64,000 nt of DNA from Desulfovirgula sp. (GCA_020725525.1 DYEX01000155.1:4328-68327); one strand, 5' to 3'. Positions 33,158 to 49,151 are shown, counted from the first letter of the stretch. The notes: a model not told the origin generated them from the sequence alone. Made by a program: numbers and translations.

Positions 33158-34504
33158 TCAGTCCATCAGGATGCGGCGCTGAATGAAGTTGGTGTAAATC
33201 TCGCCCCGGCGGAAAAAGGCGTTGTGCAGCACCCGCTGATGGAAAGGAATGGTGGTCTTGATACCCTCAATGACAAACTCCCCCAGTGCCCGCTGCATCC
33301 GGGCAATGGCTTCATCCCGGTCCTGGCCCCAGGCAATCAGCTTGGCGATCATGGAATCGTAATGGGGCGGAACCTTCCAGCCGGGGTAGGCCGCACTGTC
33401 CAGACGGATCCCCGGACCGCCGGGAGGCAGGTAAGCAGTAATCAGTCCCGGGGAGGGAGCGAAGTTACGGGCGGGATCCTCGGCATTAATCCGGCATTCA
33501 ATGGCCCAGCCCCGGATCTGGATGTCTTCCTGGGTATAACCCAGGGGTTCTCCTGCCGCCAGGCGTATTTGTTCTTTGATCAAATCAATGCCGGTAACCA
33601 TTTCGGTAACCGGGTGCTCCACCTGAATGCGGGTGTTCATTTCAATGAAATAAAAGTTTTGATGCTTGTCCAGCAGGAATTCCACCGTCCCGGCGTTATA
33701 ATAACCCACGGCCCGGGCGGCCCTTACCGCCATTTCACCCATTTTCCGGCGCAGCTCGGGGGTGAGGGCGGTGGAAGGGGATTCCTCGATCATCTTCTGA
33801 TTGCGCCTCTGAATGGAGCAGTCCCGTTCCCCCAGATGGACGATATTGCCGTGCTTGTCGCCCAGGATCTGAAACTCAATATGACGGGGTTCGTCCACAT
33901 ATTTCTCCACATAAACCTGGGCGTTGCCAAAGGCCGCCTGGGCTTCCGCCTGGGCCGTCTGCACCGCCCGGCTCAGGTCCTCGGGGCCCTGAGCCACCCG
34001 CATGCCCCGGCCGCCACCGCCGGCAGAAGCTTTAACCAGCACGGGGTAGCCAATTTCTTCCGCCACCTCCAGGGCCTCCTGCACGTCCCGGAGCACACCG
34101 GGGGAACCGGGTACCACCGGTACCCCGGCTTTTAGCACCGTTTCCCGGGCCACGGCCTTGGCACCCATTTTTTCCATGGCGGAGGCCGGGGGGCCGATAA
34201 AGGTCAGGCCGCAGCTTTCGCAGATTTCCGCAAACCCGGCATTTTCAGCCAGAAAACCATAACCGGGGTGGATGGCGTCCGCCCCGGAAACCATGGCCGT
34301 ACTGATAATGTTGGTGATATTGAGGTAACTTCTGGCTGCCGGGGCCGGACCAATGCAGTAAGCCTCATCGGCCATACGCACCGGCAGGCTGTCCCGGTCG
34401 GCTTCGGAATATACCAGAACAGTTTTAATGCCCATCTCCCGGCAGGCACGAATGATCCTTAAGGCAATTTCTCCCCGGTTCGCAATCAGTATTTTTTTAA
34501 ACAT
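33158..34504 (-). CDS. accC: Biotin carboxylase (AccC / pyruvate carboxylase subunit A)
   Basis: [56 protein letters not shown]. Confidence 0.96.
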
Positions 34505-34522
34505 GTCCTGCTCCCTGCCCAT

Positions 34523-36394
34523 CTATTTTTCCCGAATTAAGAACAGTTCCTGCCCGTATTCCACGGGTTGCCCGTTTTCCACCAGGATGTCTACAATCTC
34601 ACCGGCTACGTCGGACTCAATTTCGTTCATTAGCTTCATGGCCTCAATAATGCACAGCGTCTGACCTTTTTGCACCACGTCTCCTACCTGGACAAAGGGT
34701 GGCGCATCGGGAGCCGGGGCACGGTAAAAGGTGCCCACCATGGGAGATCTGATAACGGTAAGACCGGTGGTATCAAGGTTTTTTTCCGCAGCCGGTGCCG
34801 GCGGGGCGGCCGTTTCCCGGGCCGGCGGCGGCACCGGGGAATCCTCACCCGCAGGTGCAGGCATTGTTCCTTGCGCGCCGGCTTTCCTTATGGCCACTTT
34901 CACCCCCGCACTCTCCAGGGATAATTCGGCAATGGCCGTCTGGTCAATTAGTTTAATCAACTCCTTGATTTCCTGTAAGTTCATGCTCCCTTCCTCCTTA
35001 CGACCGGCCTTTTGCTCCCGGGTTCCGGGCCGCAAGGGTGCGGCAGAATCCACGGGCTGGTGACCCGGCCGGTTGCGGTTTTCAAAGAATCGCTTCGCCA
35101 CCTGGGGAAACAGGGCGTAGGAAATGAAATCTTCTTCCGACTTTGCCAGGTGCCTGATCTCTTCTCTTATTTTATCCATTTTGGGCTCCAGTAAATCGGC
35201 GGGGCGACAGGTAATGGGCTCCTTGTCTCCCAGGATCTTTCGGGCCACATCCGGATCTATGGGGGCCGGAGGCCTGCCGTAAAGTCCTTCTACATAGGCC
35301 CGCACCTCGCCGGGAATGAGTTTGTATCGTTCTCCGGTGAGAACGTTCAACACGGCCTGGGTGCCCACGATCTGGCTGGTGGGAGTAACCAGGGGCGGGT
35401 AACCCAGCTCCGCCCTTACCCGGGGAATTTCCGCCAGAACCTCGGTCAGGCGATGCAGGGCCTTTTGTTCTTCCAGCTGGGTAACCAGGTTGGAAATCAT
35501 CCCTCCGGGTACCTGGTGTTCAAAGACCCGCATGTCGTTAATGCGGGTTACCCCCCGCTCGTAACCCAGGGACTTACGCAAATCTTCAAAGTAAGCGGCA
35601 ATCTCAAAGAGCAGGTGGAGATCCAGGCCGGTATCGTAGGGCGTACCCTGCAGGGCACGGACCACGGTTTCCACCGGGGGCTGTGAAGAACCGAAGGCCA
35701 GGGGCACGGAGGCGGTATCCACCACATCCACTCCCGCCTCGGCCGCCTTGAGATAGGCCCCCAGGGCCAGACCGCCAATGTAGTGACTGTGCAACTGTAC
35801 CGGCAGGCCAACCCGCTCCTTAATCAGTTTTACCAGTTCATAAGCCCTGTAAGGAGTAAGCAGGCCGGCCATATCCTTAATACATATGGAATGGGCCCCC
35901 ATCTGGGCCAGACTGACCGCCGTTTCCACATAGTGCTCGGTGGTGTGTACCGGGCTGATGGTGTATACCACCGCCGCCTGGATGTGTGCCCCCGTTTTCT
36001 GCGCCACCCGCATGGGTGCTTCGAAGTTGCGCAGGTCGTTCAACGCATCAAAGATGCGGATAATATCTATGCCGTTTTCCACCATCTTATAAATAAAGGC
36101 CTCTACCACATCGTCTGGATAATGCTGGTAACCCACCAGGGACTGACCCCGTAAAAGCATCTGCAAAGGCGTGCGTTTAATATGCTTTTTTAACACCCGC
36201 AGGCGTTCCCAGGGATCTTCGTTCAAATAACGCATACAGACATCAAAAGTGGCCCCGCCCCACACTTCCAGGGAATGATAGCCAACCGCATCCAGTTTTT
36301 CCAGGATGGGCAGCATATCTTCGGTGCGCATGCGGGTGGCCCAGAGACTCTGGTGACCATCGCGCAGGGTGGTGTCGGTAATCTTTAAACCCAT
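34523..36394 (-). CDS. pycB: Pyruvate carboxylase subunit B / OadA-type carboxyltransferase fused to full biotin carboxyl carrier protein
   Basis: [43 protein letters not shown]; C-terminal [14 protein letters not shown]...SPMVGTFY...EAMKLMNEI. Confidence 0.88.
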
Positions 36395-36572
36395 GGAAAT
36401 CCTCCCCCAAAACACGGCAAAACAAAAAATACTCAGGTTGCAATAAATTACAACCTGAACCGTTAGCCTGTTTATTATTTAACCTGATGTTATTATATTA
36501 AAATCTGCAGGCCCCGGAAATAGGGTAGACGCAAGTATACAATATTTCTGTTTAGTAATCCTCTTTACAGGC

Positions 36573-36597
36573 AAAACCTCCCCGTGAAAGGGGAGGC
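36573..36597 (-). terminator. Terminator after the Apr-like operon
   Basis: CCTCCCC-tttcac-GGGGAGG-TTTT on minus strand. Confidence 0.6.
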
Positions 36598-36683: not shown

Positions 36684-37055
36684 CTAGCTACATAGCAATC
36701 GCAATAAATGTTCAGGAAAGGTGGCCCGGGGATGTCTTGCTGCCAGGCGCCGCAGGCGCACCACTGCCGTGGCCACATCCAGTTCCTGGGGGCAACACCG
36801 GCTACACCGCCGGCAGCCGATACACGCCCAGAGAAAACGGGAAGTTAGCACTTCATCCAGCCGGCCGAGTTGCAATAGACGCAGCACGCGGGCAGGCGAC
36901 AGGTCCCGGATACGGGCAAGGCAGGCTCCACCACACCGTCCGCAGTTGGCGCAACTGCGGGCAGTACGAATAGTAACCGGATCAAGTCGTTCCAGATCCT
37001 GGAGAGTTATTTCCCTGAAGGGACGATCCTCATGCATGGGGATAACCTCCGGCAT
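36684..37055 (-). CDS. HdrC-like 4Fe-4S dicluster protein
   Basis: CANCGRCGGAC and LWACIGCRRCSRCCPQELDV; SPARVLRLLQLG typical of HdrC. Confidence 0.75.
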   Translation of the reverse strand: MPEVIPMHEDRPFREITLQDLERLDPVTIRTARSCANCGRCGGACLARIRDLSPARVLRLLQLGRLDEVLTSRFLWACIGCRRCSRCCPQELDVATAVVRLRRLAARHPRATFPEHLLRLLCS

Positions 37056-37059
37056 AAAT

Positions 37060-39387
37060 TCATTCTTTAAAAGGATTGGGACCTAATTCTTGAAGCTGCT
37101 TTACAAATCTTTTTATTGCTGCCACCAGGCTCTGTCCGTCCTCAATACCGGCAGTAAGCACCTGCACCCGCTCGGGTTCCACCAGCATGCGCTGCAAGGT
37201 TTCCCGCAAGTTGTTGACCCGGGATTCGGCCAGGGATGTACCCCGCCCGTAATGGCACTCCGTAGTACGGCAACCTACCACCAGTACACCGTCTATCCCG
37301 CTGAGCAGCGCATCATTGATCCAGCCTGCATTCACCGCTCCGGCACAGGGAACCCTGACCGCCAGTATATTAGCCCCATAGCTGGTCCCCCGGGTGCCGG
37401 CCAGATCCAGCGCCGGGTAAGCATCGTTGGCACATAAGAAAGCCAGTACGCAAGGTTGCTCATCCATGCTGCCCGTATCCACCGCTTCTATAAGTCCGGC
37501 CATCTCCCGGGAACTGAATCCCGGCAGGTAAATACATCTCAGGGGACATCCCCCCTGACAGATACCACATCCACGGCAGGCCAGTGGATTTACCGCCGGA
37601 TAACCGCCTGTATCAAAGCTGCAGGCACCGTAGGGACATTCCTCTACACAGCGCCCGCACCGGTCGCACTTGTGCCGCTCCACTACCGGTGGAACTACCA
37701 CAGACTGGTTCTGGATGGTAGCCAGACATTCCGCTGCTGCAGCCAGAGCGCTTTTGACGCTTGTACTCACATCCATCGGTTCCTGAGCACAACCGGCCAC
37801 ATAAATACCCGCACGCCGCACCTCCATGGGCGAACAGGGCAGGTGACCGGTAATGAAGCCGGTTGTGTCCTTTTCCAGGCGCTCAAAAGCCGGGACGGCA
37901 CAGGGTACCATACCGGTGGCCAGTACCACCAGTTCGGCCCGTACCGCTACCCGTGAGCCACTTAAGGTATCATCAGCCGTGACGACCAGTTCTTCTGCCC
38001 CAGGGTCCCATTCCACTGCATAGGGGTTACCCCGGATAAAAACTGCACCGTGTTCTTCCCGTGTCCGGCGGTACAGTTCTTCCAGGTTGCCCGGAGTACG
38101 GATGTCCATGTAAAAGACAAAAATGCCGGCCTCCGGCGCCACCGCCCGTACGTAATCAATTTGCTTTAATGTGGCCGCACAGCATACACTGGAACAATAA
38201 GCCAGGTGCTGTTTATCACGGCTGCCGGCACACTGGATAAAGGCCACCCGCCTTACGGGCTTTTTATCGTGAGGCCGGATTAACTGGCCACCGGTTGGTC
38301 CGTCCGGACGGGCCAGAACCTCCAAGTCCATGCTGGTAATTACTCCAGGCAAACGCCCGTAGCCGTAATTGTTAATCCGTCCGGCATCGTAAGGTTCCCA
38401 ACCCGCAGCCAGAATGATCGCGTCCACACCAATGCTCAGCCTGTCTTCCTCCTGGTCCAGGTCAATGGCCCCGGCCGGACAGACTTCCACACACCGGCTG
38501 CAGGATTTACCACGACAAAACACACGGTTGACGGCATAGTTAAGAGGATAGGGAAATAACCCCGGGCCTTCAATGGCCCGCTGCCTGCCCGGTGGCAATG
38601 CTGCGGAGGGTGCTACCTCCACCGGGCAAACCTCAAGGCAAGCACCGCACCCGGTGCAGGCATCCTTGACGTAACGGGGTTGTTTTAAAAGTTCCACCAT
38701 AAAGTTACCGGCGGTACCACGCACACCGGTTACCTCGGTCAAGGTGTGCACCGTTACCCTTCCCGTAGCCAGCAAACGCGCCATCAGTACCTCCAACCCA
38801 CACCGGGGTGAGCAAAAGCGCGGGTAATAGCGGTGCAACCGGGCCACCTTACCTCCCAGGAAAGGGGATTTTTCTACCAGCGTTACGTTAACCCCGGCCC
38901 GGGCCAGATTCTCTGCTGCGGTTAGTCCGGCAATACCTCCCCCGACTACCAGTACAGACCGGGAAGTTGAAGAACTAACCGGTTCAAAGGATTCTGCCGG
39001 GCTCAACCGCCCCACGGCCATTTTGAGTAGATTCCGGGCCTTTGCCATCGCCAGCGCCGGCTGGTCCCGGTGGGCCCTGGTGCACTGTTCCCTGAGGTTA
39101 CAGCGTTCCAGGAAGTGTTCGTTCAAGCCTGCCTGCCGTGCAAGACGAAGAAAGGTATCCCGGTGTACGGCTGGTGAGCATGCTCCAACCACTACCCGGT
39201 CTACACGCCCCTGGCGCACATCCTCAGCAATTATTTCCAGGCCGTCAGCGCTACATAACGCAGGATAATGGATGCTGGCAGCAACCCCGCGCCATTTGCC
39301 TGCCTGCTGGGATAATTTCTCCAGGTCAAGAATTTTACCAATTTCACCGTAACAATGACACAGGTAGACACCGATTTTTGGCGGCAC
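37060..39387 (-). CDS. HdrA/Qmo-like flavoprotein with ferredoxin and MvhD domains
   Basis: KIGVYLCHC, VGACSP, NLREQC; VGGGIAG FAD site; IQCAGSRD...YCSSVCC; C-terminal 2x CxxCxxC and MvhD (FLCANDAY, RVPCAG, GCRTTECHY). Confidence 0.88.
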   Translation of the reverse strand: MPPKIGVYLCHCYGEIGKILDLEKLSQQAGKWRGVAASIHYPALCSADGLEIIAEDVRQGRVDRVVVGACSPAVHRDTFLRLARQAGLNEHFLERCNLREQCTRAHRDQPALAMAKARNLLKMAVGRLSPAESFEPVSSSTSRSVLVVGGGIAGLTAAENLARAGVNVTLVEKSPFLGGKVARLHRYYPRFCSPRCGLEVLMARLLATGRVTVHTLTEVTGVRGTAGNFMVELLKQPRYVKDACTGCGACLEVCPVEVAPSAALPPGRQRAIEGPGLFPYPLNYAVNRVFCRGKSCSRCVEVCPAGAIDLDQEEDRLSIGVDAIILAAGWEPYDAGRINNYGYGRLPGVITSMDLEVLARPDGPTGGQLIRPHDKKPVRRVAFIQCAGSRDKQHLAYCSSVCCAATLKQIDYVRAVAPEAGIFVFYMDIRTPGNLEELYRRTREEHGAVFIRGNPYAVEWDPGAEELVVTADDTLSGSRVAVRAELVVLATGMVPCAVPAFERLEKDTTGFITGHLPCSPMEVRRAGIYVAGCAQEPMDVSTSVKSALAAAAECLATIQNQSVVVPPVVERHKCDRCGRCVEECPYGACSFDTGGYPAVNPLACRGCGICQGGCPLRCIYLPGFSSREMAGLIEAVDTGSMDEQPCVLAFLCANDAYPALDLAGTRGTSYGANILAVRVPCAGAVNAGWINDALLSGIDGVLVVGCRTTECHYGRGTSLAESRVNNLRETLQRMLVEPERVQVLTAGIEDGQSLVAAIKRFVKQLQELGPNPFKE

Positions 39388-39446
39388 TGTGTTCCCCCCC
39401 CCTGAAAACACCGGGGGCCGGCAACGGGCCGCCGGCCCCTAAATTC

Positions 39447-39770
39447 TTAGTCATTCCTGTTTTTAAAGGTGAAGCGTTCTACCTTACCGTGAATATCCAC
39501 AACAGTCCAGCTGATTTTATTGCTTCCAACCAGCGGAATAAGCTTGGCCGGGTAATAACCCAACTGGTAAGGTAGACGGGTTTCAATGGCTCCGTTGGGG
39601 CAGGCTTTCACGCAGGACATACAATCCCAGCAGTCCCGTGCCGAACGGCAATATGCCTTTCCATTATTTTCATCCAGAGCCATCAAATCCCCAGGGCATA
39701 TTTGTACACAAAGGGCTTCGCTTTCAGCACGGCAACCGTCACATTTTTGGAGATTAACCTTTGGCGGCAC
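39447..39770 (-). CDS. aprB: Adenylylsulfate reductase beta-like ferredoxin subunit (short form)
   Basis: KCDGC...CVQICPGDLM, DCWDCMSCVKACP...IETRLPY; adjacent to aprA-like gene. Confidence 0.85.
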   Translation of the reverse strand: MPPKVNLQKCDGCRAESEALCVQICPGDLMALDENNGKAYCRSARDCWDCMSCVKACPNGAIETRLPYQLGYYPAKLIPLVGSNKISWTVVDIHGKVERFTFKNRND

Positions 39771-39793
39771 CAGTAATCAACCTCCTGTCAGAA

Positions 39794-41551
39794 TTATGGC
39801 CGGTAACGATCTCCAGGGATTATCTGTTCGTATGGCCTGGTAAATACTTCTATCTCGCCGGTTTGCGGGTTACGCCGGGAGTTGACGAAGCAATCGAAAC
39901 GGGTATCATCCCGCTCGGGGAAGTCCACCCTGTTCTGCCAGCCCGGCCAGCGGGTTTCCTCACGGAACAACAGGTGATGTACCAGCACTTCCGCTACATC
40001 CAGCCGGTCAATTATTTCATGAGCTTCCATTAGCTCGTGTAAATCGTGGGCTACAAGATACCTGGTTTGATCCTTCAAAATAGCCAGGTGTTTCAGGGCA
40101 TATTCCAGTCTTTCCCGGTTCATCCGGTAAAACTGGTGCACACCACCTGCATATTCGTCCATAAGCCGCTGGAGGCGTTCCTCCATTTCCCGCGGGATAA
40201 CACCATCCCCTTCCCGAACCTGCCTGATGGCCGGCGCATAAACCCGCGCCTTTTCCGCTGCCACAAGAGACTCATCCACCTGACCCCTGTCTGCCAGGGA
40301 TCCCAGGTATTCGATAGCCCCCCGGGCCGCCAGCATTCCTTCGGCAGCACAACCGCCGACAAACTTGTTCGGTACCCCACCGGCCACATCGCCGCAGGCA
40401 AAAAGACCGGGCAGGGTGGTAGCACGCTTAACATCAATCCAGTACCCGCTGGCCGTATGGCCTCCCACGATGTAGGGGTCGCTACCGTAGACCTCAATGG
40501 GCTCCCTGGTAATGTCCTGACCGCGGGCAGCCAGGAAGAGTACAAAGCTGGGACGCTCATTCAAATAATCTATTTTCAGGGTCTTGACCTGTTCCGGAGT
40601 CATATGACGGGTATCCACATAACAGGGACCCCTGCCGGCCAGCCATTCTTCCATCGGTGCGTTGGCCCGCACGAAACGAGGAGAAGCGTCACCGCCCATG
40701 TGAGCATACCGTTTGGCTAAAATTTTCTCCCCTTTGGCGTTAATCATAGGCGCTTTATAACCTACCGAAATGGTGTCAATGGGCCCGTTAAAATCCTTAG
40801 TACGCACAGCGCACCAGCGCATCTCGAAGGTGGTCATTTCCGCACCGGCCCGAATACCCATGGCATAACCGGTACCCACGTTAAAGGGGCAATACCAGAT
40901 CTGGTGGTGGCTATCAACGCCATCGTTGGTATAGGGTTTATATAGCCCGGCTGCTCCTCCGGTGGCCACAATGGTCGCTCCGGCTTTAATAATATAGAAC
41001 TTGCCGTCCCGGACACCAAACCCCATGGCGCCGATAACGCGGTCACCATCGAGGAGATAATTGGTGGCCACCACCCGGTTTAAAACTTCGCAGCCGTATT
41101 CCCGCACCTTCTCGGCCAGGATCACCTTCATCTCTGAACCCTGGATGGCAATATCCCAGCGCCCCCGGGCCAGGTATTCCCCGTTTTCGTCCTTTTTAAT
41201 GGGCAGGCCCCACTCTTCCCATTCTTCAATGGCCTGATTTAAAAGTTCGGCCATGGTAATGGTCAGGTCTTCCCGCAGGAGACCTCCTGCCTGGGCGCGG
41301 CTCCAGCGAACCAGGTTTTCCACGGTTTCGTTTTTCTTAATGTAAGTATTGATGGCATCCATGCCTGAGGCCAGGCAGCCGCTGCGATCGATGTGGGCTT
41401 TTTCCATCAGGGTGACCCGCAGATCGGGACGACGGCGCTTGGCCTCAATGGCAGCATAGCAGCCGGCGTTACCGGCACCGATAATCAAAATGTCAGTCTC
41501 AAGCCTTACCTCTCCCACCTCTTCAAGTTTCGCAGGCAGTTTTGCAGCCAT
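39794..41551 (-). CDS. aprA: Adenylylsulfate reductase alpha-like flavoprotein (divergent lineage)
   Basis: IIGAGNAG, RSGCLASGMDAIN, IWYCPFN, VRTKDFNGP, VGGH, LFACGD, REETRWPG. Confidence 0.85.
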   Translation of the reverse strand: MAAKLPAKLEEVGEVRLETDILIIGAGNAGCYAAIEAKRRRPDLRVTLMEKAHIDRSGCLASGMDAINTYIKKNETVENLVRWSRAQAGGLLREDLTITMAELLNQAIEEWEEWGLPIKKDENGEYLARGRWDIAIQGSEMKVILAEKVREYGCEVLNRVVATNYLLDGDRVIGAMGFGVRDGKFYIIKAGATIVATGGAAGLYKPYTNDGVDSHHQIWYCPFNVGTGYAMGIRAGAEMTTFEMRWCAVRTKDFNGPIDTISVGYKAPMINAKGEKILAKRYAHMGGDASPRFVRANAPMEEWLAGRGPCYVDTRHMTPEQVKTLKIDYLNERPSFVLFLAARGQDITREPIEVYGSDPYIVGGHTASGYWIDVKRATTLPGLFACGDVAGGVPNKFVGGCAAEGMLAARGAIEYLGSLADRGQVDESLVAAEKARVYAPAIRQVREGDGVIPREMEERLQRLMDEYAGGVHQFYRMNRERLEYALKHLAILKDQTRYLVAHDLHELMEAHEIIDRLDVAEVLVHHLLFREETRWPGWQNRVDFPERDDTRFDCFVNSRRNPQTGEIEVFTRPYEQIIPGDRYRP

Positions 41552-41624
41552 ATTCTAAAACCTCCCCAAATCAATCTTTATTTGATAACTCCTTACAACT
41601 AACTGAACTTAAACCCGGGTTTCA

Positions 41625-43133
41625 TCACCTCCATGTGACATACCCGCCCCAAACGGGTAAGCCGTTAACAGCATACCAGGGCATCATAACCAGCACAAAG
41701 TAAAGGAGAGTTGCCACCATGATCGGTATTCCTACTCTGGCGTAGGTCTTCGTGTCAAAAGTTCCCGTCCCGTAAGCAATCACACAGGCGGTTACCTGAG
41801 TGGGAACAAGGAAGGAGAAGGTGTCAAAATTCGCCACCAGCAAAGTAAAGGCTACCGGGTTTAAGTTAAGTACCCTGGACAGGGATATCAGTATCGGCGC
41901 CAGCATGGATACCGCAGCCACGTTGCTGAGCATAAATATCCTGACAAATGCGGTGAGCACGATGAAACCGACCACGATAACCAGGAAATGCTGTCCTTTA
42001 AAGTACATTCCGGCATACCCGGCAATCCACTCCGAAAGACCCGTAGCACTGATTGCGCTGGCCAAAGATAGTGCTCCGGCCAACAAAAGCCACGTTCCCC
42101 AAATGGTTTTGTTCTGTAACGTTTTCCATGGAGTGGGCAGCAACCCGGGTATAAAGAAAATTCCCAGGGCAATTAAGGTGGCCAGGCCTGTCTTTATCTT
42201 GTGCTGTGGTTCTGTGATCCAGAGCAGAACCGCAACAGCAAAGATTGCCAGTACAAGCCATTCTATAAAGCTCATTTTACCCATGTTTTTCTTCTCACAC
42301 TGAATGAAATCAGTTCCGCCGGGCACTGAGATTCCGCCCACATTCAACTGCTTCCTTATGATCAGAAACATAACAGGGAGCAGGCCTATAATCGGCCAGT
42401 GCAACCAGAACCACCTGGCATAATTTAACTGATACCCCAGCTCTTTTTCGAATAGACCGGCCATTATCACGTTGGGCATGTGGGCAGTGAGAAGCAGAAT
42501 TCCACCAACCATGGGGAAATAACACAGACCCGTTATAGCCAGTGCTCCCCTGGCCCTCCTGCCTTCAGGGGTTTCTTCAAACAATTCCATGATGCCCTTG
42601 ACAATGGGCAGGAGCACAGCCGACCTGGAAACCGCCGCCGGGATGATCAAGCTTAAAGCAATATTTACAGCCATTAACCCTTTGATCACCTGGTCAACGC
42701 GCGGCTTAACCCTGCTCAGTACGGCCAGGGCAATCCTTCTATCGAGACCGGTGCTCTGCATGATGGCGGCAAAAATGAAGGAACCCAGAACCAAAAAGGA
42801 TACGTCCTGACTAAAACCCCCAAAGGCCTGGGGAATTTTTTTCTGAGCACCAGTTAACACCAAAAGGAGCGGAATGAGCAGTCCCGTCACTCCAACCGGC
42901 ATTGCTTCGGTAATCCACATAATGACGGCCCAGACGGCTACCGCAGCCGCTGCCAATCCCGCAGGCTTTAACCCCGGCGGAACGGGTAAGGAAAGAATGA
43001 TGAAAAAGGCGATCCACGCTGCCACAAAACCAGGAAAAGCCGTGTTTGGATCCAGTCCTGCCTTTCTGGCATTCTCGACCATAAATCCGGGTACGAACCG
43101 TATGTACCACTTCAGATCGCCATTACCCCGCAT
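41625..43133 (-). CDS. DASS/SLC13 family anion permease
   Basis: MWITEAMPVGVT, TGLDRRIA, IIPAAVSRSA, TAHMPN, MLSNVAA, VPTQVTA, many TM segments. Confidence 0.88.
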   Translation of the reverse strand: MRGNGDLKWYIRFVPGFMVENARKAGLDPNTAFPGFVAAWIAFFIILSLPVPPGLKPAGLAAAAVAVWAVIMWITEAMPVGVTGLLIPLLLVLTGAQKKIPQAFGGFSQDVSFLVLGSFIFAAIMQSTGLDRRIALAVLSRVKPRVDQVIKGLMAVNIALSLIIPAAVSRSAVLLPIVKGIMELFEETPEGRRARGALAITGLCYFPMVGGILLLTAHMPNVIMAGLFEKELGYQLNYARWFWLHWPIIGLLPVMFLIIRKQLNVGGISVPGGTDFIQCEKKNMGKMSFIEWLVLAIFAVAVLLWITEPQHKIKTGLATLIALGIFFIPGLLPTPWKTLQNKTIWGTWLLLAGALSLASAISATGLSEWIAGYAGMYFKGQHFLVIVVGFIVLTAFVRIFMLSNVAAVSMLAPILISLSRVLNLNPVAFTLLVANFDTFSFLVPTQVTACVIAYGTGTFDTKTYARVGIPIMVATLLYFVLVMMPWYAVNGLPVWGGYVTWR

Positions 43134-43348
43134 AAAGTCCCCTCCACTTTTCCAGGTGAAAATTCTTCCTTAATAGCAGTTTGCTCACCATTTAAACCTT
43201 TTCTTTTGTCGCAGTACTTTATTTACTTTCTTTTAGTTCATAAAAAGCTTTCACCCCCTTTTTTTTTGCACAGCTTTATTCAGCAAATACTTATGGCCAA
43301 TATAACAGAAACTTTTAAAACCTGCAGTTTCCTAACATACTGAAGATT

Positions 43349-43364
43349 TGTTATCTTGCTTACA
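43349..43364. promoter_or_regulatory. Putative Crp/Fnr-type operator upstream of the DASS-apr operon
   Basis: TGTTA-N6-TTACA, about 45 bp upstream of an extended -10 (TGtTATATT, 43299-43307, minus strand). Confidence 0.5.
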
Positions 43365-43374
43365 AAAAAAATAA

Positions 43375-43394
43375 AACCCAGTCGAAACTGGGTT
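43375..43394 (-). terminator. Terminator after the Crp/Fnr gene
   Basis: AACCCAGT-ttcg-ACTGGGTT, followed by TTATTTTTTTT on minus strand. Confidence 0.7.
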
Positions 43395-43420
43395 ACTCTT
43401 TAATCTATTTAATAATCTAT

Positions 43421-44083
43421 TTAATCTATCCACTTAAGTAATTTTGCAGGTCGAATTTTTTTGATTTCACGCCCTTCCACGGTAATGGCCCCTTCTTGTT
43501 TAAATGTGTTTAAAAGGGTGGTAACAGTGGGACGAGAAGTGCCAATCATGCATGCAATTTCCTCATGGGTGAGGCGCAGGTTGATTTCTACCAGTTCCAT
43601 TTTTCCTGTTGTGTCTGTGCGTTCGGCCAGTTTAAGGAGCAGAAGAGCCAGCCGTCCTGCAACGGGCCAGGAAACAATTTCGTATATGGTGTTTTGGGCT
43701 TCCCGGATTCTCTTCCCCAGTATTTGCGCTATTTTTACCGCCAGGGCAGGTTTTGAGGTGAGGAGTTTAAGAAAGTCATCTCGTTTGAACACCAAAATAT
43801 TTACATCTTCCACGGCCTCGGCAAAACAGATACGCTCCATGCCGCACAAAGCCTCGGCCAGGCCAACAAATTCTCCGGGATGACGTAAAGCCACAGTAAC
43901 CCGGCGGCCGTCTCCGGCCAGGTAGTAAATTTTAATTAGCCCCTTCTGAACGAAATAAACCCTGTCTGCAACTTCCCCAGAGGAAAAAATTAATTGACCC
44001 CGGGGATAATCAATAGCCGTACCGTGACCCTTTAACTGCTCTTTTAACTGCTCATCCTCCAATCCTGCTTTTTTAACCTTCAT
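43421..44083 (-). CDS. Crp/Fnr family transcriptional regulator
   Basis: cNMP-binding fold (GQLIFSSGE, GEFVGL) and HTH LTHEEIACMIGTSRPTVTTLL. Confidence 0.93.
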   Translation of the reverse strand: MKVKKAGLEDEQLKEQLKGHGTAIDYPRGQLIFSSGEVADRVYFVQKGLIKIYYLAGDGRRVTVALRHPGEFVGLAEALCGMERICFAEAVEDVNILVFKRDDFLKLLTSKPALAVKIAQILGKRIREAQNTIYEIVSWPVAGRLALLLLKLAERTDTTGKMELVEINLRLTHEEIACMIGTSRPTVTTLLNTFKQEGAITVEGREIKKIRPAKLLKWID

Positions 44084-44108
44084 TACCTCTCCTCCACCAG
44101 ATAAATAA

Positions 44109-44124
44109 TGTCAGGTAATTGACA
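44109..44124. promoter_or_regulatory. Perfect Crp/Fnr-type palindrome upstream of the regulator gene
   Basis: TGTCA-ggtaat-TGACA. Confidence 0.55.
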
Positions 44125-44166
44125 ATTCACCTGCCACCTACCGGACAGCATAAACACCCTTATTTA

Positions 44167-44182
44167 TGTCATAATGTTTACT
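44167..44182. promoter_or_regulatory. Second, imperfect Crp/Fnr-type site
   Basis: TGTCA-taatgt-TTACT. Confidence 0.4.
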
Positions 44183-44329: not shown

Positions 44330-44725
44330 CTATCGCCTTGACCAGGCCCTTGTGATTGGAGGCAGAGGCCGTGCCCCAGAGGATTCCCAACACGTAGGCC
44401 CCGCCGCCCTTTGAAATACAGCGGCGGTCTTTTTGCACCTGGGGAGAAAATGACCGCACGCCTGTGCGTTCGGGTTGCCGCGGGAAAGCACTTTAAGGAG
44501 TCCCTCCTTCCCAGCCGATTTCATAACTTCCACAGCGTACAGGGTTTCCGGAACGGACTTTTCAAGGGTGCCATACCCGGGCAAGCCGACCACGCAACCC
44601 CACCGCACTTCTTCTCTCCCTTGGATTTTGATCAGGAATCGGCAGTCAGCACACCGCCTTATGGCCCTCTCCCGCATTTCCGGCAGGATGATGCGTTGGC
44701 CCTCCCACAGCCGGTTATCCCGCAT
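44330..44725 (-). CDS. YolD-like N-terminus fused to a Cys-rich region; DinB accessory candidate
   Basis: MRDNRLWEGQRIILPEMRE, then CADCRF...C...CGHF; start overlaps dinB stop. Confidence 0.55.
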   Translation of the reverse strand: MRDNRLWEGQRIILPEMRERAIRRCADCRFLIKIQGREEVRWGCVVGLPGYGTLEKSVPETLYAVEVMKSAGKEGLLKVLSRGNPNAQACGHFLPRCKKTAAVFQRAAGPTCWESSGARPLPPITRAWSRR

Positions 44726-45902
44726 ACCGCACACCCGCCTCAGTAAGGGAGGACGCCCTGAAAATTGCTCTCTCCCCGAACCTGTTCCGGATATAGTCGC
44801 AGGCTCGCTCGGCCCTGCCCCACTTTTCTCTTTCCCCGAAGAGGGTGAGCTGTTCCGCAGGCTTCAGGATCAGCCCGGCAAGGGTCACCCCCACCATGCG
44901 CACGGGCCAGCCCTCCGGCCAGTGCCGCGCCAGAAGGTCCACCGCCGCCCGGTAGATATCCGCGGCCAGGTCGGTGTGCGCGCGAAGGGTTTTCATGCGC
45001 GATAAATACGCAAAGCTGGCGTCCTTCAGGGAGAGCACCACAGTTTTGCCCGCGTACCCCCCGCTCCTTACCCTTTCGGCCACCTTCTCGACCAGCTCCA
45101 GGATGACCACCTTTATCTCCGCAAACCGGCGGTAGTCCCTGGGCAGGGTTATCTGCTGGCCGACGCTCTTGACCCTGTCCAGCGAATGGGGGTCGACGGG
45201 GCTTTCATCAATGCCGTTGGCGCACCGCCATAGAACCTCGCCGTAGACCCCGAACCGCATCTTTAGAATTTTCACCGGGAAGTTGGCAAGATCACCAATG
45301 GTATGGATGTTGAGCAACCTTAAGTGCCGCTCGTACCTGGGACCGACACCGAAAAGTTCCCTCACCGGCAGGGGCCACAGGCGGGCGGACACGTCTTCGT
45401 AGCCCAGGACCGTCAGGCCGTCCGGTTTCTGGAGTTCCGCTGCCATCTTGGCCAGGAGCTTGTTCGGCCCTATACCGATGCTGCACGTCACACCCACTTC
45501 ATCCCGTATGCGTTTTTTGAGGGCCAGGGCAATTTCCACCGGTGAACCGAAGAGCTTATGGCAGCCGGTGACGTCCAAAAAGGCTTCATCAATGGAAAAC
45601 GGCTCCACCAGAGGCGTGAAGTCCCGCATGATGCCCAGGATGCGGGTGGAAAAATTCACGTAGAGGTTGTGCTGGGGCTTCAAAAAGACGCCCTCGGGGC
45701 ACAGCTTCCGCGCTTCGTACACGGTTATGCCCGTCTTCACGCCCCTGGCCTTGGCCTCGTAGCTGGCCGCCAGCACCACCCCGTGGCGCTTTGCCGGGTC
45801 GCCGCCAACAATGACCGGTCTGCCTTTCAAAGCGGGGTCCAGCGCCTGGTGGACGCTGGCAAAAAAGGAGTTCATGTCGGCAAGGAGGATGGCCCTCTCC
45901 AA
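44715..45902 (-). CDS. dinB: Y-family DNA polymerase IV (DinB/UvrX-like)
   Basis: LADMNSFFASV, VLAASYEAK, FSIDEAFLD, SIGIGPNKLLAKMA, VGQQITL; TTG start at 45902. Confidence 0.93.
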   Translation of the reverse strand: MERAILLADMNSFFASVHQALDPALKGRPVIVGGDPAKRHGVVLAASYEAKARGVKTGITVYEARKLCPEGVFLKPQHNLYVNFSTRILGIMRDFTPLVEPFSIDEAFLDVTGCHKLFGSPVEIALALKKRIRDEVGVTCSIGIGPNKLLAKMAAELQKPDGLTVLGYEDVSARLWPLPVRELFGVGPRYERHLRLLNIHTIGDLANFPVKILKMRFGVYGEVLWRCANGIDESPVDPHSLDRVKSVGQQITLPRDYRRFAEIKVVILELVEKVAERVRSGGYAGKTVVLSLKDASFAYLSRMKTLRAHTDLAADIYRAAVDLLARHWPEGWPVRMVGVTLAGLILKPAEQLTLFGEREKWGRAERACDYIRNRFGERAIFRASSLTEAGVRYAG

Positions 45903-45922
45903 AACGAAAACCCCCCTGGACA

Positions 45923-45969
45923 AAACGGGTGTTTGGTATCATCTTAACCAAACACGCGTTCTTTGTCAA
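45923..45969 (-). promoter_or_regulatory. sigmaA promoter with two LexA (Cheo-type) SOS boxes
   Basis: TTGACA-N17-TAAGAT; GAAC-gcgt-GTTT (45950-45961) and AAAC-N4-GTTT (45923-45934). Confidence 0.72.
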
Positions 45970-46069
45970 GGGGGATTTCTAATACCTGCGGAGGAGCGAC
46001 ACGACTTTGCCCGAAATTTCCACGACCTCCCGGGGCTGTGTCAGCCCAGGGGCGGAGGTAAACAGTGCT

Positions 46070-46639
46070 CTACGGCCTGGGAATAATCACCACATCCTGT
46101 TCCGCCACCCCCGTTCCCCGGGACACCAGTTCGGCAATGCGGGTGGCCTCCTCGGGGGAGATGCGGGCCGCCTGGACTACCACGGTGGCACCCCGGTCAT
46201 CCAGACAGACGGCTGCATCCTTGAAGCCCTTGGCCCGGAGCAGATTTTCCACTTCAACTTCCCGGGCCATGCTCTGGCTGATGGCCAGCAGCCGCTCCTG
46301 GGCGGTCCTGCGGGTTTCGGCCGCCGCCTGGGGGTTGTTGATAATTTCCCGGAGCAGTTCCAGTTGCTGGCCCCGGGTACGTTCCCGGTCCAGGCGATAC
46401 TCCACGAAAAAGGCCGCTCCATCCCGGGACACATCCTGAACCTGCCGGGGCGACTCCGGCACAGTTCCCGCTGCTGTCCCCCGGGCGGCAGGCATATTAT
46501 TTGCGGACACCGGTGCACCGTCATCCTGCCGTTCCATCTGTCCGGGAGCACCCTGCCAGCCCAGAACAAGCAATGTTAGTCCCAGCAAACCCAGCAAGAA
46601 GGCCAGAAGGATTCGTTTCTGGATCAGGATGGTATGCAT
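46070..46639 (-). CDS. spoIIIAH: Stage III sporulation protein AH
   Basis: FFVEYRLDRERTRGQ, EVENLLRAKGF; last gene of the spoIIIA operon. Confidence 0.93.
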   Translation of the reverse strand: MHTILIQKRILLAFLLGLLGLTLLVLGWQGAPGQMERQDDGAPVSANNMPAARGTAAGTVPESPRQVQDVSRDGAAFFVEYRLDRERTRGQQLELLREIINNPQAAAETRRTAQERLLAISQSMAREVEVENLLRAKGFKDAAVCLDDRGATVVVQAARISPEEATRIAELVSRGTGVAEQDVVIIPRP

Positions 46640-47284
46640 TTAAATCTCTCCCCTTTCCCGCGGTAATACCAGGATTTTTTGCGGTTCAATGCCCAGGGCC
46701 ACCTGCACGGCCTGGAAAAGCCGGGCCTTCACCAGGGGATCCCGGGCTCCATCGGCCACCACCAGCACTCCCGCCACCCGGGCGGAAATTTCCTGTTCCA
46801 CCACCGGTATTTCCCCCTGGCCGGAACGGATTAAAACCAGCTGGTCGCTACCGGTATCTTCACTGGTTACCCTGGTCCCCCCCGCCTGGTCCTTTTCCTG
46901 GGTGGTTTTGCGCCCGGTGGTGGTGTTCACGGCATATTCCTCCCGGCTGGAACTGGCCAGGCGCACCGTTACCTTCACCTTACCGGCCCCCTCTACTTGT
47001 CCAAGCATTTCCCGCAGCTTTTCCTCCAGGGCTGCTTCCTGGCGGGCCATATTCGAGTCGCCCGGTTGCTTGGCCAGGCTCTCCTGGGGGGGATGGTTCC
47101 CTTCATTCACCGGCGGTTTTCCTTTTGCCGGAAAGCTTACACTCCCCAAAAGGAGCAGGACTACCCCCAGGGCAACCAGGCCGCCCAGTACCCCGAGCTG
47201 GCGCCGCGTCATTTTCGGAGGGAGATCCCCTTCCTCCCGGTTTCCAAGAAATTTCTTCCATGCATCCCAGATAGACACCTTCAC
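46640..47284 (-). CDS. spoIIIAG: Stage III sporulation protein AG
   Basis: LGQVEGAGKVKVTV, GVLVVADGA. Confidence 0.92.
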   Translation of the reverse strand: MKVSIWDAWKKFLGNREEGDLPPKMTRRQLGVLGGLVALGVVLLLLGSVSFPAKGKPPVNEGNHPPQESLAKQPGDSNMARQEAALEEKLREMLGQVEGAGKVKVTVRLASSSREEYAVNTTTGRKTTQEKDQAGGTRVTSEDTGSDQLVLIRSGQGEIPVVEQEISARVAGVLVVADGARDPLVKARLFQAVQVALGIEPQKILVLPRERGEI

Positions 47285-47298
47285 CGACCTCCCTGAGA

Positions 47299-47955
47299 TT
47301 AACTCACCCAGTGCACCTTAACCTGTTCAGGCGAAAGGTTATAGAAATTGGCTACCGTTTTGGCCAGCTGTCCCGCCGCCCTTTCCGCCTCCGGCCCTGG
47401 TTTCAAACCCGTAACATCATTCCCTGATAGACCCCGGCCGCCCACATCAATGGTTACCGGGTCCACTAAAGGGTCATCCCGCCCGGCCCCCTTTTCCCGG
47501 GTACCAGGGGAGGCCGCGGCCAGTAAAAGTAGAACCTCCCGGATTTGTCCAAAACGCCTGTCCTGGGGATCACTATAAACTTCCACCTGTGCTTTTACCA
47601 GCTGTACCTCCTTGTTTAAACCTGCCAGGGCGGCGATCTGGCGGGAGAGGCCCTGCCGGTACTCTTCCAGGGCTTTCTGCTGGTGCCCGTCTTTTAAACG
47701 CTGCCCGGCCGCCATAATATCCGTCAAATCCGGGACTCCTGAAGGAGTACCGGTTAAAGCCGGTTCCGGCAGGTCGTGCTGCCATTCCCCCCGCACCACC
47801 CCCCCTATAGCCTGCAAAACCACCACGATAATTAACAGTCCCATAACCATTTTCACATAGCGCCGCATGTCGCCGGCCGGCAGCAGCATTTCCAGAAAAA
47901 CCGCCAGGACTACGATAATAATCAGGTTCTGGACCAGGTTACGGACGAGCTCCAC
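47299..47955 (-). CDS. spoIIIAF: Stage III sporulation protein AF
   Basis: FLEMLLPAGDMRRYVKMVMGL. Confidence 0.92.
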   Translation of the reverse strand: MELVRNLVQNLIIIVVLAVFLEMLLPAGDMRRYVKMVMGLLIIVVVLQAIGGVVRGEWQHDLPEPALTGTPSGVPDLTDIMAAGQRLKDGHQQKALEEYRQGLSRQIAALAGLNKEVQLVKAQVEVYSDPQDRRFGQIREVLLLLAAASPGTREKGAGRDDPLVDPVTIDVGGRGLSGNDVTGLKPGPEAERAAGQLAKTVANFYNLSPEQVKVHWVS

Positions 47956-47969
47956 ATCATCCCTCCCCC

Positions 47970-49151
47970 CTAACGCAGCATGACGGTAAGGTTGCCCACC
48001 CCTACCAGGATGGCAATGGCAAAGAAAAAGAGCAAGCCCACCGTGGCCACTGTGGCGAAGATAATGATTATGCTGTTGCCCAGGTCGGAAAGACAGGCCA
48101 CCACCTGGGAATCGTCCACCGGTTGAATCAACGCCCCGGCCAGTTTATAAATAAAAGCCAGGGAAATGAGCTTGACCAGCGGCAGGGCCATGATCATCAC
48201 CACTGCCACCACACCGGCAATACCCAGGGCATTTTTAATCAGCAGGGAAGAACTGATCACTGCCTCCAGGGCATCGGAAAACATTCCACCCACTACCGGG
48301 ATAAAGGCGTCCAGGGAAAACTTGGCCGTGCGCAAGACCACTCCATCCCCTACAGCCCCGGCCACCCCCTGGATGGCTAAAAGGCCCAGGAAAACCGTCC
48401 CCATTATCCCTAAAAGCCCCACCGCTGCGCCCCGCAACAGGCCGGCCAGGCCGGAAACCTTAAAGCGGGGGGAAAGGTGACTGGCCAGTCCCAGCACGGC
48501 GGAAAAGAAAACCAGGGGCAGAACCACGTTCTTGATCAGGGTTCCCAAAAAGGTGATGCTGACCAGAATTACGGGGTGAAAGATGGCCGCCGAAGCCACC
48601 CCGCCCAGGGCCACCAGCAGGGTGAGCAATACGGGCATCAAGGCTTGCATAAAGGTGACCATCCTGTCCACCACTTCCCTGCCGGTCTGCACCGCCAGAG
48701 CAAAGGAAGCAATGGCAATAGTTACCAGCACCAGGTAGGTGACGGTATGGGTAAGCTGGCCGGTGGTCCCCCGGTCAAAGGCGGCGGTAAAATTTTGCAG
48801 TACCACGCATATTATGGCCAGGACGACCAGCTTACCCAGGAGGGCGGAATTGGCCACCACCTCGCGAAACAAATAGGAAAGGAGGCTTTTGAAGAGTTCC
48901 CCGGCACTCAAATCAATTTCTCCACGGATTAATTTCATGACCATTTCTTTAAAGTTAAACCCGGGAATGGCATCTTTAATTTCCGCGTCCAGGGTATTTA
49001 TGTAATCCTCCACCCCGCTGATATCCAGTGCCTTCTGCACCGGCTCCAGGGAAGAAGTAGATTCCGGTAAATCCCCCGGTAAAGCCAGGGCGGCAGCGGG
49101 AAAGAATAACAATACCGCACAGAACACGCAAAACCAGAAGGGCCGGAGCAT
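47970..49151 (-). CDS. spoIIIAE: Stage III sporulation protein AE
   Basis: FMQALMPVL, RTAKF...IPVVGGMFSDA, LIKNALG, IQPV. Confidence 0.94.
   Translation of the reverse strand: MLRPFWFCVFCAVLLFFPAAALALPGDLPESTSSLEPVQKALDISGVEDYINTLDAEIKDAIPGFNFKEMVMKLIRGEIDLSAGELFKSLLSYLFREVVANSALLGKLVVLAIICVVLQNFTAAFDRGTTGQLTHTVTYLVLVTIAIASFALAVQTGREVVDRMVTFMQALMPVLLTLLVALGGVASAAIFHPVILVSITFLGTLIKNVVLPLVFFSAVLGLASHLSPRFKVSGLAGLLRGAAVGLLGIMGTVFLGLLAIQGVAGAVGDGVVLRTAKFSLDAFIPVVGGMFSDALEAVISSSLLIKNALGIAGVVAVVMIMALPLVKLISLAFIYKLAGALIQPVDDSQVVACLSDLGNSIIIIFATVATVGLLFFFAIAILVGVGNLTVMLR

Follow-up and report, generated by a model that had tools for sequence, protein, structure and literature searches.

A co-oriented cluster of six genes on the minus strand of a 64-kb window of DNA from Desulfovirgula sp. 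(DYEX01000155.1) encodes an unusual relative of adenosine 5'-phosphosulfate (APS) reductase together with its own regulator, transporter, and electron carriers. The window is the whole stretch that was analyzed, and all feature coordinates are positions in it. The genes encode a regulator of the Crp/Fnr family, an anion permease of the DASS/SLC13 family, the two subunits of an AprAB-type reductase (AprA' and AprB'), a fusion of HdrA and MvhD, and a short HdrC-like ferredoxin (Table 1). The sequence-only reading of this DNA had described a self-contained, regulator-linked module that is closed by a terminator and lacks sulfate adenylyltransferase (Sat), and this outline was confirmed. All six open reading frames (ORFs) lie on the minus strand with Pfam and NCBIfam assignments that agree, two terminator-like hairpins are predicted after hdrC, and a regular-expression search for two signature motifs of ATP sulfurylase found no Sat motif across the window. 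No second AprA homologue was found in the 64-kb window. As an interpretation, that reading as a whole is partly supported. Sequence comparison places AprA'B' in a third AprAB subfamily, and we tentatively favor an inducible module that imports a pre-activated sulfo-compound and reduces it to sulfite, with electrons fed by a soluble Hdr-type system.

Table 1. Genes and predicted signals of the module in the 64-kb window
Feature	Position	Strand	Basis
Crp/Fnr-family regulator, 220 aa	43421-44083	minus	Pfam cNMP_binding (PF00027) and HTH_Crp_2 (PF13545)
DASS/SLC13 anion permease (502 aa), which heads the operon	41625-43133	minus	PF00939, 241 bits; TIGR00785, 234 bits
AprA', 585 aa, flavin adenine dinucleotide (FAD) subunit of the AprAB-type reductase	39794-41551	minus	NF005331, 663 bits
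AprB', 107 aa, subunit with two [4Fe-4S] clusters	39447-39770	minus	TIGR02060, 98 bits
HdrA-MvhD fusion, 783 aa	37060-39411	minus	HdrA of 8RVU/5ODC; MvhD chains
Short HdrC-like two-cluster ferredoxin, 123 aa	36684-37055	minus	HdrC core; TIGR03290, 49 bits
Candidate Crp-type operator for autoregulation, a perfect palindrome TGTCAGGTAATTGACA lying upstream of the crp start by about 25 nt	44109-44124	none	predicted
Candidate operator TGTAAGCAAGATAACA (minus-strand reading), one mismatch, 216-231 nt upstream of the DASS start codon	43349-43364	none	predicted
Terminator-like hairpin with T-run, directly 3' of crp	43375-43394	minus	predicted
GC-rich hairpin between aprB' and hdrA, 11 pairs (9 G-C)	39414-39439	minus	predicted
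Two terminator-like hairpins 3' of hdrC, closing the operon	36577-36591 and 36431-36460	minus	predicted

The intergenic gaps in the operon are 73 nt between the DASS gene and aprA', 23 nt between aprA' and aprB', 35 nt between aprB' and hdrA, and 4 nt between hdrA and hdrC. The regulator appears to form its own transcription unit, because a hairpin with a T-run follows crp. The hairpin between aprB' and hdrA, followed by a short T-rich stretch, fills the 35-nt gap. It is possibly a partial terminator or a processing site, and it could attenuate read-through and thereby leave AprA'B' in excess over the Hdr proteins. The G+C content is 0.47 at 42001-44000, a stretch that runs from crp through the promoter region into the 5' half of DASS, compared with 0.53-0.61 in most of the window. 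This low value may reflect AT-rich regulatory DNA or a foreign origin of the module.

AprA' is 99% identical to a protein of Desulfofundulus thermosubterraneus DSM 16057 and 95% identical to a protein of Desulfovirgula thermocuniculi. The window is assigned to a Desulfofundulus. DNA sequencing runs that contain the sequence come from isolates and from subsurface, coal, or hot-spring metagenomes. Among metatranscriptomes, it was detected in one run only (X25, from sediment), as a single 215-nt contig on aprA' (window 41125-41336). This contig has one mismatch, which indicates that aprA' is transcribed in nature by a near-identical organism.

For comparison, three sets of 80 loci each were collected from species-representative genomes. 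Group A comprises the loci nearest to AprA', group B those nearest to the Methanothermococcus thermolithotrophicus (Mt) enzyme that reduces 3'-phosphoadenosine 5'-phosphosulfate (PAPS), called MtPAPSR, and the canonical set those nearest to AprA of Archaeoglobus fulgidus (Af). Group A includes one locus per species, and its total is at least 80 species. The genome scan with the A. fulgidus AprA query, also meant to reveal a canonical sat-aprBA-qmo locus of Desulfofundulus, gave hits in Archaeoglobi, Thermoplasmata, Chlorobi, and other taxa, and none in Desulfofundulus.

AprA' passes the NCBIfam model NF005331, 'adenylyl-sulfate reductase alpha' (663 bits, cut-off 557), and fails the equivalog TIGR02061 for canonical aprA (413 bits, cut-off 642). 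Among proteins of solved structure, it scored highest with 8A8O_A of MtPAPSR (562 bits), with which its 585 residues align end to end, followed by 1JNR_A of A. fulgidus (355 bits) and the D. gigas protein (269 bits). Scores with Sdh/Frd flavoproteins were at most 63 bits. Its identity is 48% to the Mt protein and 40% to the Af protein; for group A the median is 67%, and for group B 42%. The short AprB that had been pointed out earlier was verified, as the 107-aa AprB' stops where the tail of canonical AprB starts. It falls below the cut-off of TIGR02060 (98 bits against 136) and covers profile positions 1-104 of 132, so that it has no counterpart of the long C-terminal tail by which canonical AprB wraps AprA. 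Its match to 1JNR_B (94 bits) ends at residue 105 of 150, and the 104-aa chain 8A8O_C gave 60 bits. The tryptophan equivalent to Trp-B48 of A. fulgidus is retained in the motif DCWDC.

Neighbor-joining trees were built with Kimura distances from 555 well-occupied columns with 40 bootstraps and one canonical outgroup sequence (Af); one locus (L017) was left out owing to an ambiguous ORF. Group A was split from all other sequences in 40/40 bootstraps, and group B with Mt was split from the rest in 39/40, with Mt nested within group B. The mean distances were 1.09 between groups A and B, 1.09 between group A and Af, and 1.25 between group B and Af. On these comparisons, group A is best described as a third AprAB subfamily, about equidistant from the PAPS-type clade and canonical AprA. 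The split between group A and the rest is robust in these trees, and the deep branching order is not resolved by the distances. The sequence-only reading had brought up a divergent clade of clostridial enzymes and the PAPS reductase of Methanothermococcus; AprA' does not belong to it, in view of the bootstraps, the distance of 1.09, and the differing gene context and substrate pocket. AprA' likewise stands apart from the canonical dissimilatory clade, with 40% identity to Af AprA and a separate position in the tree; grouping within that clade, as the only aprA of the genome, is what the earlier reading had named as counter-evidence.

'AprAB-like' paralogues were recognized earlier, and a role in sulfur assimilation was proposed from neighborhoods that match those of group B (Neukirchen and Sousa 2021, PMC8477390). 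In the literature, a regulator-and-transporter-linked AprAB subfamily was not found described as a separate entity, and searches on second or orphan aprAB and on HdrA with AprA and Crp returned nothing specific. Both types occur within single genera. Some Desulfosporosinus species have group A (L015, L016, L025) and others group B (L085, L089), and the same holds for Pelosinus (group A, P0044; group B, L097, L105, L114).

The residue comparison covered 77 canonical, 59 group-A, and 78 group-B sequences, with gap-free alignment around the tabulated positions. Residues are numbered as in A. fulgidus AprA unless stated. The pocket contact list was taken from the A. fulgidus enzyme (Meyer and Kuever 2008, PMC2211403), and the description of MtPAPSR from PMC10322725. 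N74, W234, R265, and H398, which contact the flavin and the sulfo group, and R317, the adenine clamp, are invariant in all three groups. The retained active-site motifs AIN, IWY, VRTK, and GGH had been noticed from the sequence, and they do align without gaps to A. fulgidus N74, W234, R265, and H398, corresponding to N68, W219, R250, and H365 of the window protein. Group A would thus be expected to keep the sulfo-transfer chemistry at FAD N5.

The rest of the pocket separates the groups. Group B carries the basic set R144, K147, K232, and K360, which is absent from group A and from the canonical proteins. At these positions, group A has W at 144, S, T, or A at 147, Q at 232, and T, V, or I at 360. 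Positions 144, 145, and 147 correspond to Mt residues 121, 122, and 124, in or adjoining the Mt loop 104-123, which is held responsible for binding the 3'-phosphate of PAPS, although the individual residues were not named (Jespersen et al. 2023, PMC10322725). A preference of group A for PAPS is unlikely, because the basic residues are missing and Asp145 would lie next to the 3' position. Group A sides with the canonical proteins and not with group B at W144, V/I273, L278 (V in group A), D361, and F448. R141 is common to groups A and B, and the canonical residue is E141.

Of the canonical channel and contact residues, W144, V/I273, V278, F448, and R317 are retained in group A. Compared with the same list, the invariant changes are Y95W, F261W, G274D, F277S, and H446N, accompanied by E141R and Q145D. 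Three of the five phosphate and ribose contacts of APS (R265, V273, G274, Y95, H446) are therefore invariantly changed. The invariant set peculiar to group A consists of M70, D71, W95, D145, Q232, W261, D274, S277, R314, and N446. The middle of the pocket thus seems to be remodeled into an acidic, aromatic-lined space with three invariant aspartates (D71, D145, D274) and an extra arginine (R314) near the clamp. Such a pocket would suit a nucleotide in another binding mode. It would also suit a compound X-SO3- other than a nucleotide, in which an ammonium or hydroxyl group is combined with a distal group that is anionic (a carboxylate, for example) or planar. Candidate substrates would be an imported APS-like nucleotide or, for the second type, S-sulfocysteine or an amino or hydroxy acid that carries a sulfate or sulfonate.

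The gene context across the loci is equally distinctive. The ORFs of the 160 loci of groups A and B were clustered, and clusters were named via NCBIfam and Pfam; the counts given below are for group A and then group B, each out of 80. An orthologous Crp-type regulator is present in 64 and 0 loci, DASS in 47 and 5, and a TTT transporter (tctC, tctB, tctA) takes the DASS position in 10-11 and 0. HdrA-MvhD after AprB' was found in 33 and 0 loci, short HdrC in 18 and 0, HdrB after HdrC in 5 and 0, HdrA without the FAD domain together with MvhD in 9 and 0, and AsrA/AsrB-like (sulfhydrogenase beta/gamma-like) NAD(P)H modules in 6-8 and 0. Assimilation genes show the opposite distribution: CysD (0 and 71), CysN (0 and 65), CysC (0 and 26), a sulfate ABC binding protein (0 and 28), ABC permease genes that are probably CysT/W, although the cluster was not annotated (0 and 34), and an AsrC-like sulfite reductase (0 and 31). 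None of sat, cysD, cysN, and cysC lies within 8 kb in any of the 80 group-A loci, and Sat signature motifs were found in 0/80 group-A, 2/80 group-B, and 22/80 canonical loci. The genes are kept together in relatives, with the regulator, the transporter, and AprA'B' syntenic in loci of 80 species. The arrangement is thus not due to chance.

The locus of Bilophila wadsworthia ATCC 49260 (L073) belongs to group A, with 62% identity. Its gene order is tctCBA-aprA'B'-crp, with the soluble TctC binding protein encoded at 4668-5705 of the locus, and it has no Hdr genes; its neighbors are unrelated transport and signaling genes or spurious antisense ORFs. Beyond the regulator, transporter, Apr, and electron modules, no substrate-naming enzyme was common to five or more group-A loci. 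A PhnD-like periplasmic binding protein (PF12974) stands beside DASS in seven group-A loci (L028, L037, L042, L043, L049, L052, L074), where it may act as a sensor or an accessory binding protein. In group B (L081-L160; examples are L142 Blautia luti, L126 Konateibacter, and L130 Leptotrichia rugosa), operons of the type sbp-cysTW-aprAB-cysDN(-cysC)-asrC-like are found in many Clostridia, including human-gut Blautia and Lachnospiraceae. A flavoprotein PAPS/APS reductase, and not CysH, seems to be a common assimilation route in these Clostridia.

The transporter of the window passes TIGR00785 (234 bits, cut-off 199), and its best structural-sequence match is VcINDY. In the alignment with VcINDY, the two SNT hairpin-tip motifs of Na+/dicarboxylate symporters are not kept, as the first reads AAVSRS and the second SNV. 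TTT transporters of Bilophila and relatives have been described to import sulfoacetate and probably sulfolactate (PMC10413351, PMC10507020). A TauE/TSUP permease was found in at least four group-A loci (L020, L061, L064, L070). The earlier proposal that the module imports a specific anion had named sulfate among the candidates. Sulfate is now doubtful because of the TTT variants and the Sat-less hosts such as Bilophila, with TauE/TSUP permeases in further lineages, although the transporter families themselves are still compatible with it.

The regulator resembles cAMP-binding Crp proteins, which are its closest solved relatives. R67, R84, R125, and R127 (window numbering) are invariant in 64/64 regulator orthologues. 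R84 corresponds to R82 of E. coli CRP, and in place of the cAMP contacts E72 and S83 of CRP the regulator has L and I, respectively. The four invariant arginines and the loss of these two cAMP contacts suggest an anionic effector other than cAMP. FNR-type oxygen sensing was ruled out, as the regulator has no N-terminal cysteine cluster. Nitrosative-stress control of the HcpR type was down-weighted, because the CRP-like site of HcpR is unlike the operator motifs seen here.

The palindrome TGTCAGGTAATTGACA has a single match in the window, and about one match per window is expected by chance. The type TGTCAG-N4-CTGACA recurs upstream of the operon in related loci of Peptococcaceae/Clostridia (L004, L008, L018, L021). 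Perfect TGTAAG-N4-ATTACA palindromes occupy the same place as the site at 43349-43364 in five loci (L004, L007, L008, L010, L011), and TATCG-N6-CGATA is found instead in at least 14 loci of Desulfobacterota. The motifs do not reach statistical significance in the window alone, and their support is the recurrence across loci. These sites are candidates for Crp-type 5-N6-5 operators whose half-sites co-vary with lineage, as expected of a dedicated regulator.

On the side of electron supply, residues 10-643 of the fusion protein align to residues 11-651 of the HdrA of 8RVU over its full length (427 bits; 8RVU, 5ODC), and they include the N-terminal cluster domain, the FAD domain, and the inserted and C-terminal ferredoxin domains of a full-length HdrA. 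Residues 650-783 match MvhD chains (58-73 bits). The 123-aa HdrC-like protein covers only the two-cluster core (HdrC residues 28-114 of 184), stays below the cut-off of TIGR03290 with 49 bits, gives 21 bits with the qmoC model (cut-off 300), and has no membrane domain. No hdrB was found in or adjoining the window cluster. The label 'Qmo-like', given to the electron partner in the sequence-only reading, does not hold. The 25 best NCBIfam matches listed contained no Qmo model, and the best PDB sequence matches are methanogen HdrA. A pair of QmoA and QmoB with a membrane QmoC was not matched, and a single HdrA-type protein with a soluble short HdrC stands in the cluster.

In HdrABC, HdrC links the flavin of HdrA to the high-potential acceptor site in HdrB, whose CCG domains with non-cubane clusters form the place of disulfide reduction. 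AprA'B' would be the likely terminal reductase behind HdrA/HdrC, in the place of HdrB, because it is the only candidate acceptor encoded in the cluster. The electron donor is not encoded in the operon. Across group A, the electron-input genes behind AprB' vary from a full HdrA-MvhD with or without HdrC/HdrB, to a FAD-less HdrA fused to MvhD, to MvhD with AsrA/AsrB-like proteins, to none (variation among L026 and L027, from Acididesulfobacillus and Peptococcaceae CEB3, and L017-L024, L032, L040, L044-L048). Desulfovibrionales and Desulfosporosinus have no electron-input genes behind AprB'. In some lineages, the FAD-less HdrA occurs together with an NAD(P)H-type module. In the lineages with AsrA/AsrB-like proteins and MvhD, NAD(P)H would appear to reduce the substrate, which speaks for a reductive direction; such modules argue against very low-potential acceptors such as thiosulfate.

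Several known systems can be compared with the module. With MtPAPSR (8A8O) and the clostridial AprAB-like proteins, it shares the compact size of AprA (about 570-585 aa), the tail-less AprB (about 105 aa), the cofactors FAD and two [4Fe-4S] clusters, the N, W, R, and H of the catalytic site, and also R317 and R141. It differs from MtPAPSR in its separate clade, 48% identity, lack of R144, K147, K232, and K360, and possession of D71, W95, D145, W261, D274, R314, and N446. Unlike the MtPAPSR type, group A never adjoins cysDN, cysC, or sbp; it comes with a Crp regulator of its own, with a transporter of the secondary or TTT type, and with Hdr modules. Canonical AprBA (1JNR/2FJA; D. gigas 3GYX) has in common with it the fold family, the cofactor-binding and catalytic residues, the R317 clamp, the AprB tryptophan, the channel residues W144, V273, L278 (V), and F448 together with D361, and an HdrA-related partner encoded adjacently. 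In contrast to canonical AprBA, AprA' is about 60 residues shorter and 40% identical, AprB' has no tail, and no sat lies nearby. The partner is HdrA-MvhD with a soluble short HdrC instead of the QmoA/QmoB and membrane QmoC of QmoABC.

The electron-transfer proteins resemble HdrABC-MvhAGD of methanogens (5ODC, 8RVU) in the full-length HdrA, the MvhD, which is fused here, and the two-cluster core of HdrC. Unlike that complex, the cluster has no HdrB and hence no heterodisulfide site, its HdrC is truncated, and no hydrogenase genes are adjacent. The 'putative AprAB' of B. wadsworthia (Sayavedra et al. 2024) is comparable in that locus L073 belongs to the same subfamily as AprA', and it differs from the window operon in having TTT instead of DASS and no Hdr genes. 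The Bilophila (PMC11610557) and Taurinivorans muris (PMC10507020) proteins were treated in these papers as ordinary APS reductases, and both organisms were reported to lack Sat and Qmo. Among the Apr genes of these organisms, only the ATCC 49260 locus was placed in group A here.

The explanation that we tentatively favor can be written as a sequence of steps. The Crp-family regulator, whose effector pocket is strongly basic, would bind the palindromic operator and turn on the operon. The product of the first gene, DASS here and TTT or TauE/TSUP in other lineages, would import an anion, which from the gene context would be an already activated X-SO3- compound and not sulfate that needs adenylation. 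The N5 of the reduced AprA' FAD would then attack the sulfonate sulfur as in APS reductase, a step suggested by the retention of N74, W234, R265, and H398; X would leave, and the FAD-sulfite adduct would release sulfite to be respired or assimilated via a sulfite reductase of the host. Electrons would pass from an external donor through the MvhD domain, the HdrA FAD, the short HdrC, and the AprB' clusters to the AprA' FAD, and, judging by the domain architecture, ferredoxin may be co-reduced by bifurcation. A broader version, which we hold with more reserve, is that group-A AprA'B' represents a new ATP-independent class of sulfite-generating reductase for an imported sulfo-metabolite, such as exogenous APS, an S-sulfonate (e.g., S-sulfocysteine), or an amino or hydroxy acid with a sulfate or sulfonate group. 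This compound would be respired by reducers of sulfate and sulfite, the human gut pathobiont Bilophila among them, and in Desulfofundulus and many Desulfobacterota the enzyme would be wired to HdrA, with AprA'B' replacing HdrB as the high-potential bifurcation arm.

The physiology of Bilophila bears on this proposal. B. wadsworthia has no Sat and two AprAB-like clusters, which are widespread in the species and expressed, and it grew better with 10 mM APS (Sayavedra et al. 2024, PMC11610557). In T. muris, which has AprAB without Sat or Qmo, the genes were transcribed, and the protein was undetected on taurine, sulfolactate, and thiosulfate (Ye et al. 2023, PMC10507020).

Several points weigh against the import of a pre-activated compound. 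The growth of Bilophila with 10 mM APS is a weak experiment, as adenosine monophosphate or adenosine could feed growth. The closest characterized relative, at 48% identity, reduces PAPS, and most hosts are sulfate reducers with Sat elsewhere in the genome. Endogenous APS is a reasonable substrate, because the clamp formed by R317 and V278 and the residues W144, D361, and F448 are as in canonical AprA. Among DASS and TSUP proteins, sulfate importers have been proposed for sulfate reducers (PMC5840216). The operators are predicted, co-transcription of the operon is deduced here solely from gene spacing, and flavin-based bifurcation is plausible from the architecture of HdrA.

The main rival, which we regard as unlikely without dismissing it, is a second, soluble APS reductase that depends on Sat. 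DASS would import sulfate, the housekeeping ATP sulfurylase would make APS, and HdrA-MvhD/HdrC would replace Qmo; the system could provide sulfate respiration with an alternative branch, perhaps one that bifurcates, or act in APS-based assimilation. The preserved catalytic residues and adenine clamp agree with this scheme, as do the canonical residues W144, V/I273, L/V278, D361, and F448, the absence of basic residues of the 3'-phosphate type, the closer match of AprB' to canonical AprB than to the Mt beta subunit (94 vs 60 bits), and the prevalence of sulfate reducers among the hosts. The APS/sulfite couple, at about -60 mV, would suit HdrA-type bifurcation as a high-potential acceptor. The proposed sulfate importers among DASS/TSUP proteins (PMC5840216) add to this side. 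However, sat, cysDN, and cysC, which are often linked to canonical or PAPS-type apr, occur in 0/80 loci, and DASS is replaced in 10-11 loci by TTT, whose binding proteins recognize carboxylates or sulfo-carboxylates. Invariant changes affect three of the five phosphate and ribose contacts, and one of these residues has become Asp. Bilophila, reported as Sat-less (PMC11610557), keeps the module as well, and the Sat-less Taurinivorans retains an AprAB. An assimilatory PAPS reductase of the Methanothermococcus type has very little probability. It would explain why 8A8O is the best structural-sequence match (562 bits) and why a compact AprA, a tail-less AprB, and R141 are shared with the Mt clade, and sulfur assimilation was proposed for AprAB-like proteins generally (PMC8477390). 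These similarities are outweighed by the separate clade, the absence of R144, K147, K232, and K360 with an invariant Asp145 next to the 3' position, the count of cysC (0/80, compared with 26/80 in the PAPS-type clade, where cysDN reaches 65-71/80), and the occurrence in Desulfosporosinus and Pelosinus of species with either type. Sulfate reducers also live in sulfide and have scant need for assimilatory reduction.

Other substrates or directions are less compatible with the module. An inorganic S-sulfonate reductase, which would convert thiosulfate or trithionate to sulfite plus sulfide or thiosulfate after import of the dianion via DASS or TauE, is improbable. A thiolate or thiosulfate would be a chemically good leaving group for the attack by FAD N5, the transporters belong to sulfate-type or sulfite-type families, and the hosts respire sulfur oxyanions. 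The thiosulfate couple lies at about -400 mV and could not be driven by the NAD(P)H-type modules that act via a FAD-less HdrA in several lineages, and a small inorganic ion would not need a large hydrophobic channel with a clamp. In addition, the AprAB protein of T. muris was undetected in thiosulfate-grown cells (PMC10507020). The oxidative direction, in which sulfite and an acceptor nucleotide would yield APS for sulfite detoxification or oxidation with electrons passing to the Hdr unit, is highly improbable. It is true that canonical AprAB is reversible (PMC2211403), that TauE proteins are known as sulfite exporters, and that some hosts are sulfur disproportionators (Desulfocapsaceae, Dissulfurispiraceae). 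The Mt enzyme, however, showed no reverse activity (PMC10322725), and the window and the 80 group-A loci contain no Sat motif that would complete the route. The linked NAD(P)H-type modules suit electron input, and electrons at about -60 mV would have no obvious soluble acceptor via HdrA/MvhD. We judge a non-sulfur reaction, in which an imported di- or tricarboxylate would be reduced as in fumarate reductase, to be similarly far from probable. AprA lies within the flavoprotein family of fumarate reductase and succinate dehydrogenase, and DASS and TTT classically carry di- and tricarboxylates. Against this, the residues that hold the sulfo group are all invariant across the three Apr groups, the scores are at most 63 bits with Sdh/Frd flavoproteins vs 355-562 with Apr proteins, and variants of the module with TauE exist.

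The genes that flank the module are unrelated to it. Directly downstream, 33158-36415 (minus strand) encodes a biotin carboxylase of 454 aa and a carboxyltransferase of 630 aa that carries a biotinyl domain (translations judged by eye), which look like a two-subunit pyruvate carboxylase or oxaloacetate decarboxylase. The adjacency of this pair to the module is not conserved in other genomes. Upstream, 44715-51312 (minus strand) contains a gene for a DinB-like DNA polymerase IV and an apparent spoIIIA sporulation operon (translations likewise judged by eye), and these fit a spore-forming host of the Peptococcaceae.

Routine annotation labels APS-reductase-like genes 'adenylyl-sulfate reductase', and they are taken as markers of sulfate reduction. 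Group A passes NF005331, yet its context argues against the classical sat-apr route. The AprAB-like family is known and one relative has been characterized; group A is widespread, mis-annotated, and present in a medically relevant gut bacterium. D71, W95, D145, D274, R314, and N446 could be used as annotation signatures for group A, as opposed to R144, K147, K232, and K360 for the PAPS type. If sulfite is indeed produced from an imported compound without ATP-dependent activation, the module would be an unrecognized way into sulfite respiration and the formation of H2S, one that subsurface Peptococcaceae, many Desulfobacterota, syntrophs, and human-gut Bilophila would possess. It would also provide a natural HdrA/HdrC unit that drives a terminal reductase other than HdrB, a reading that bears on energy conservation by soluble Hdr-type complexes in Gram-positive sulfate reducers.

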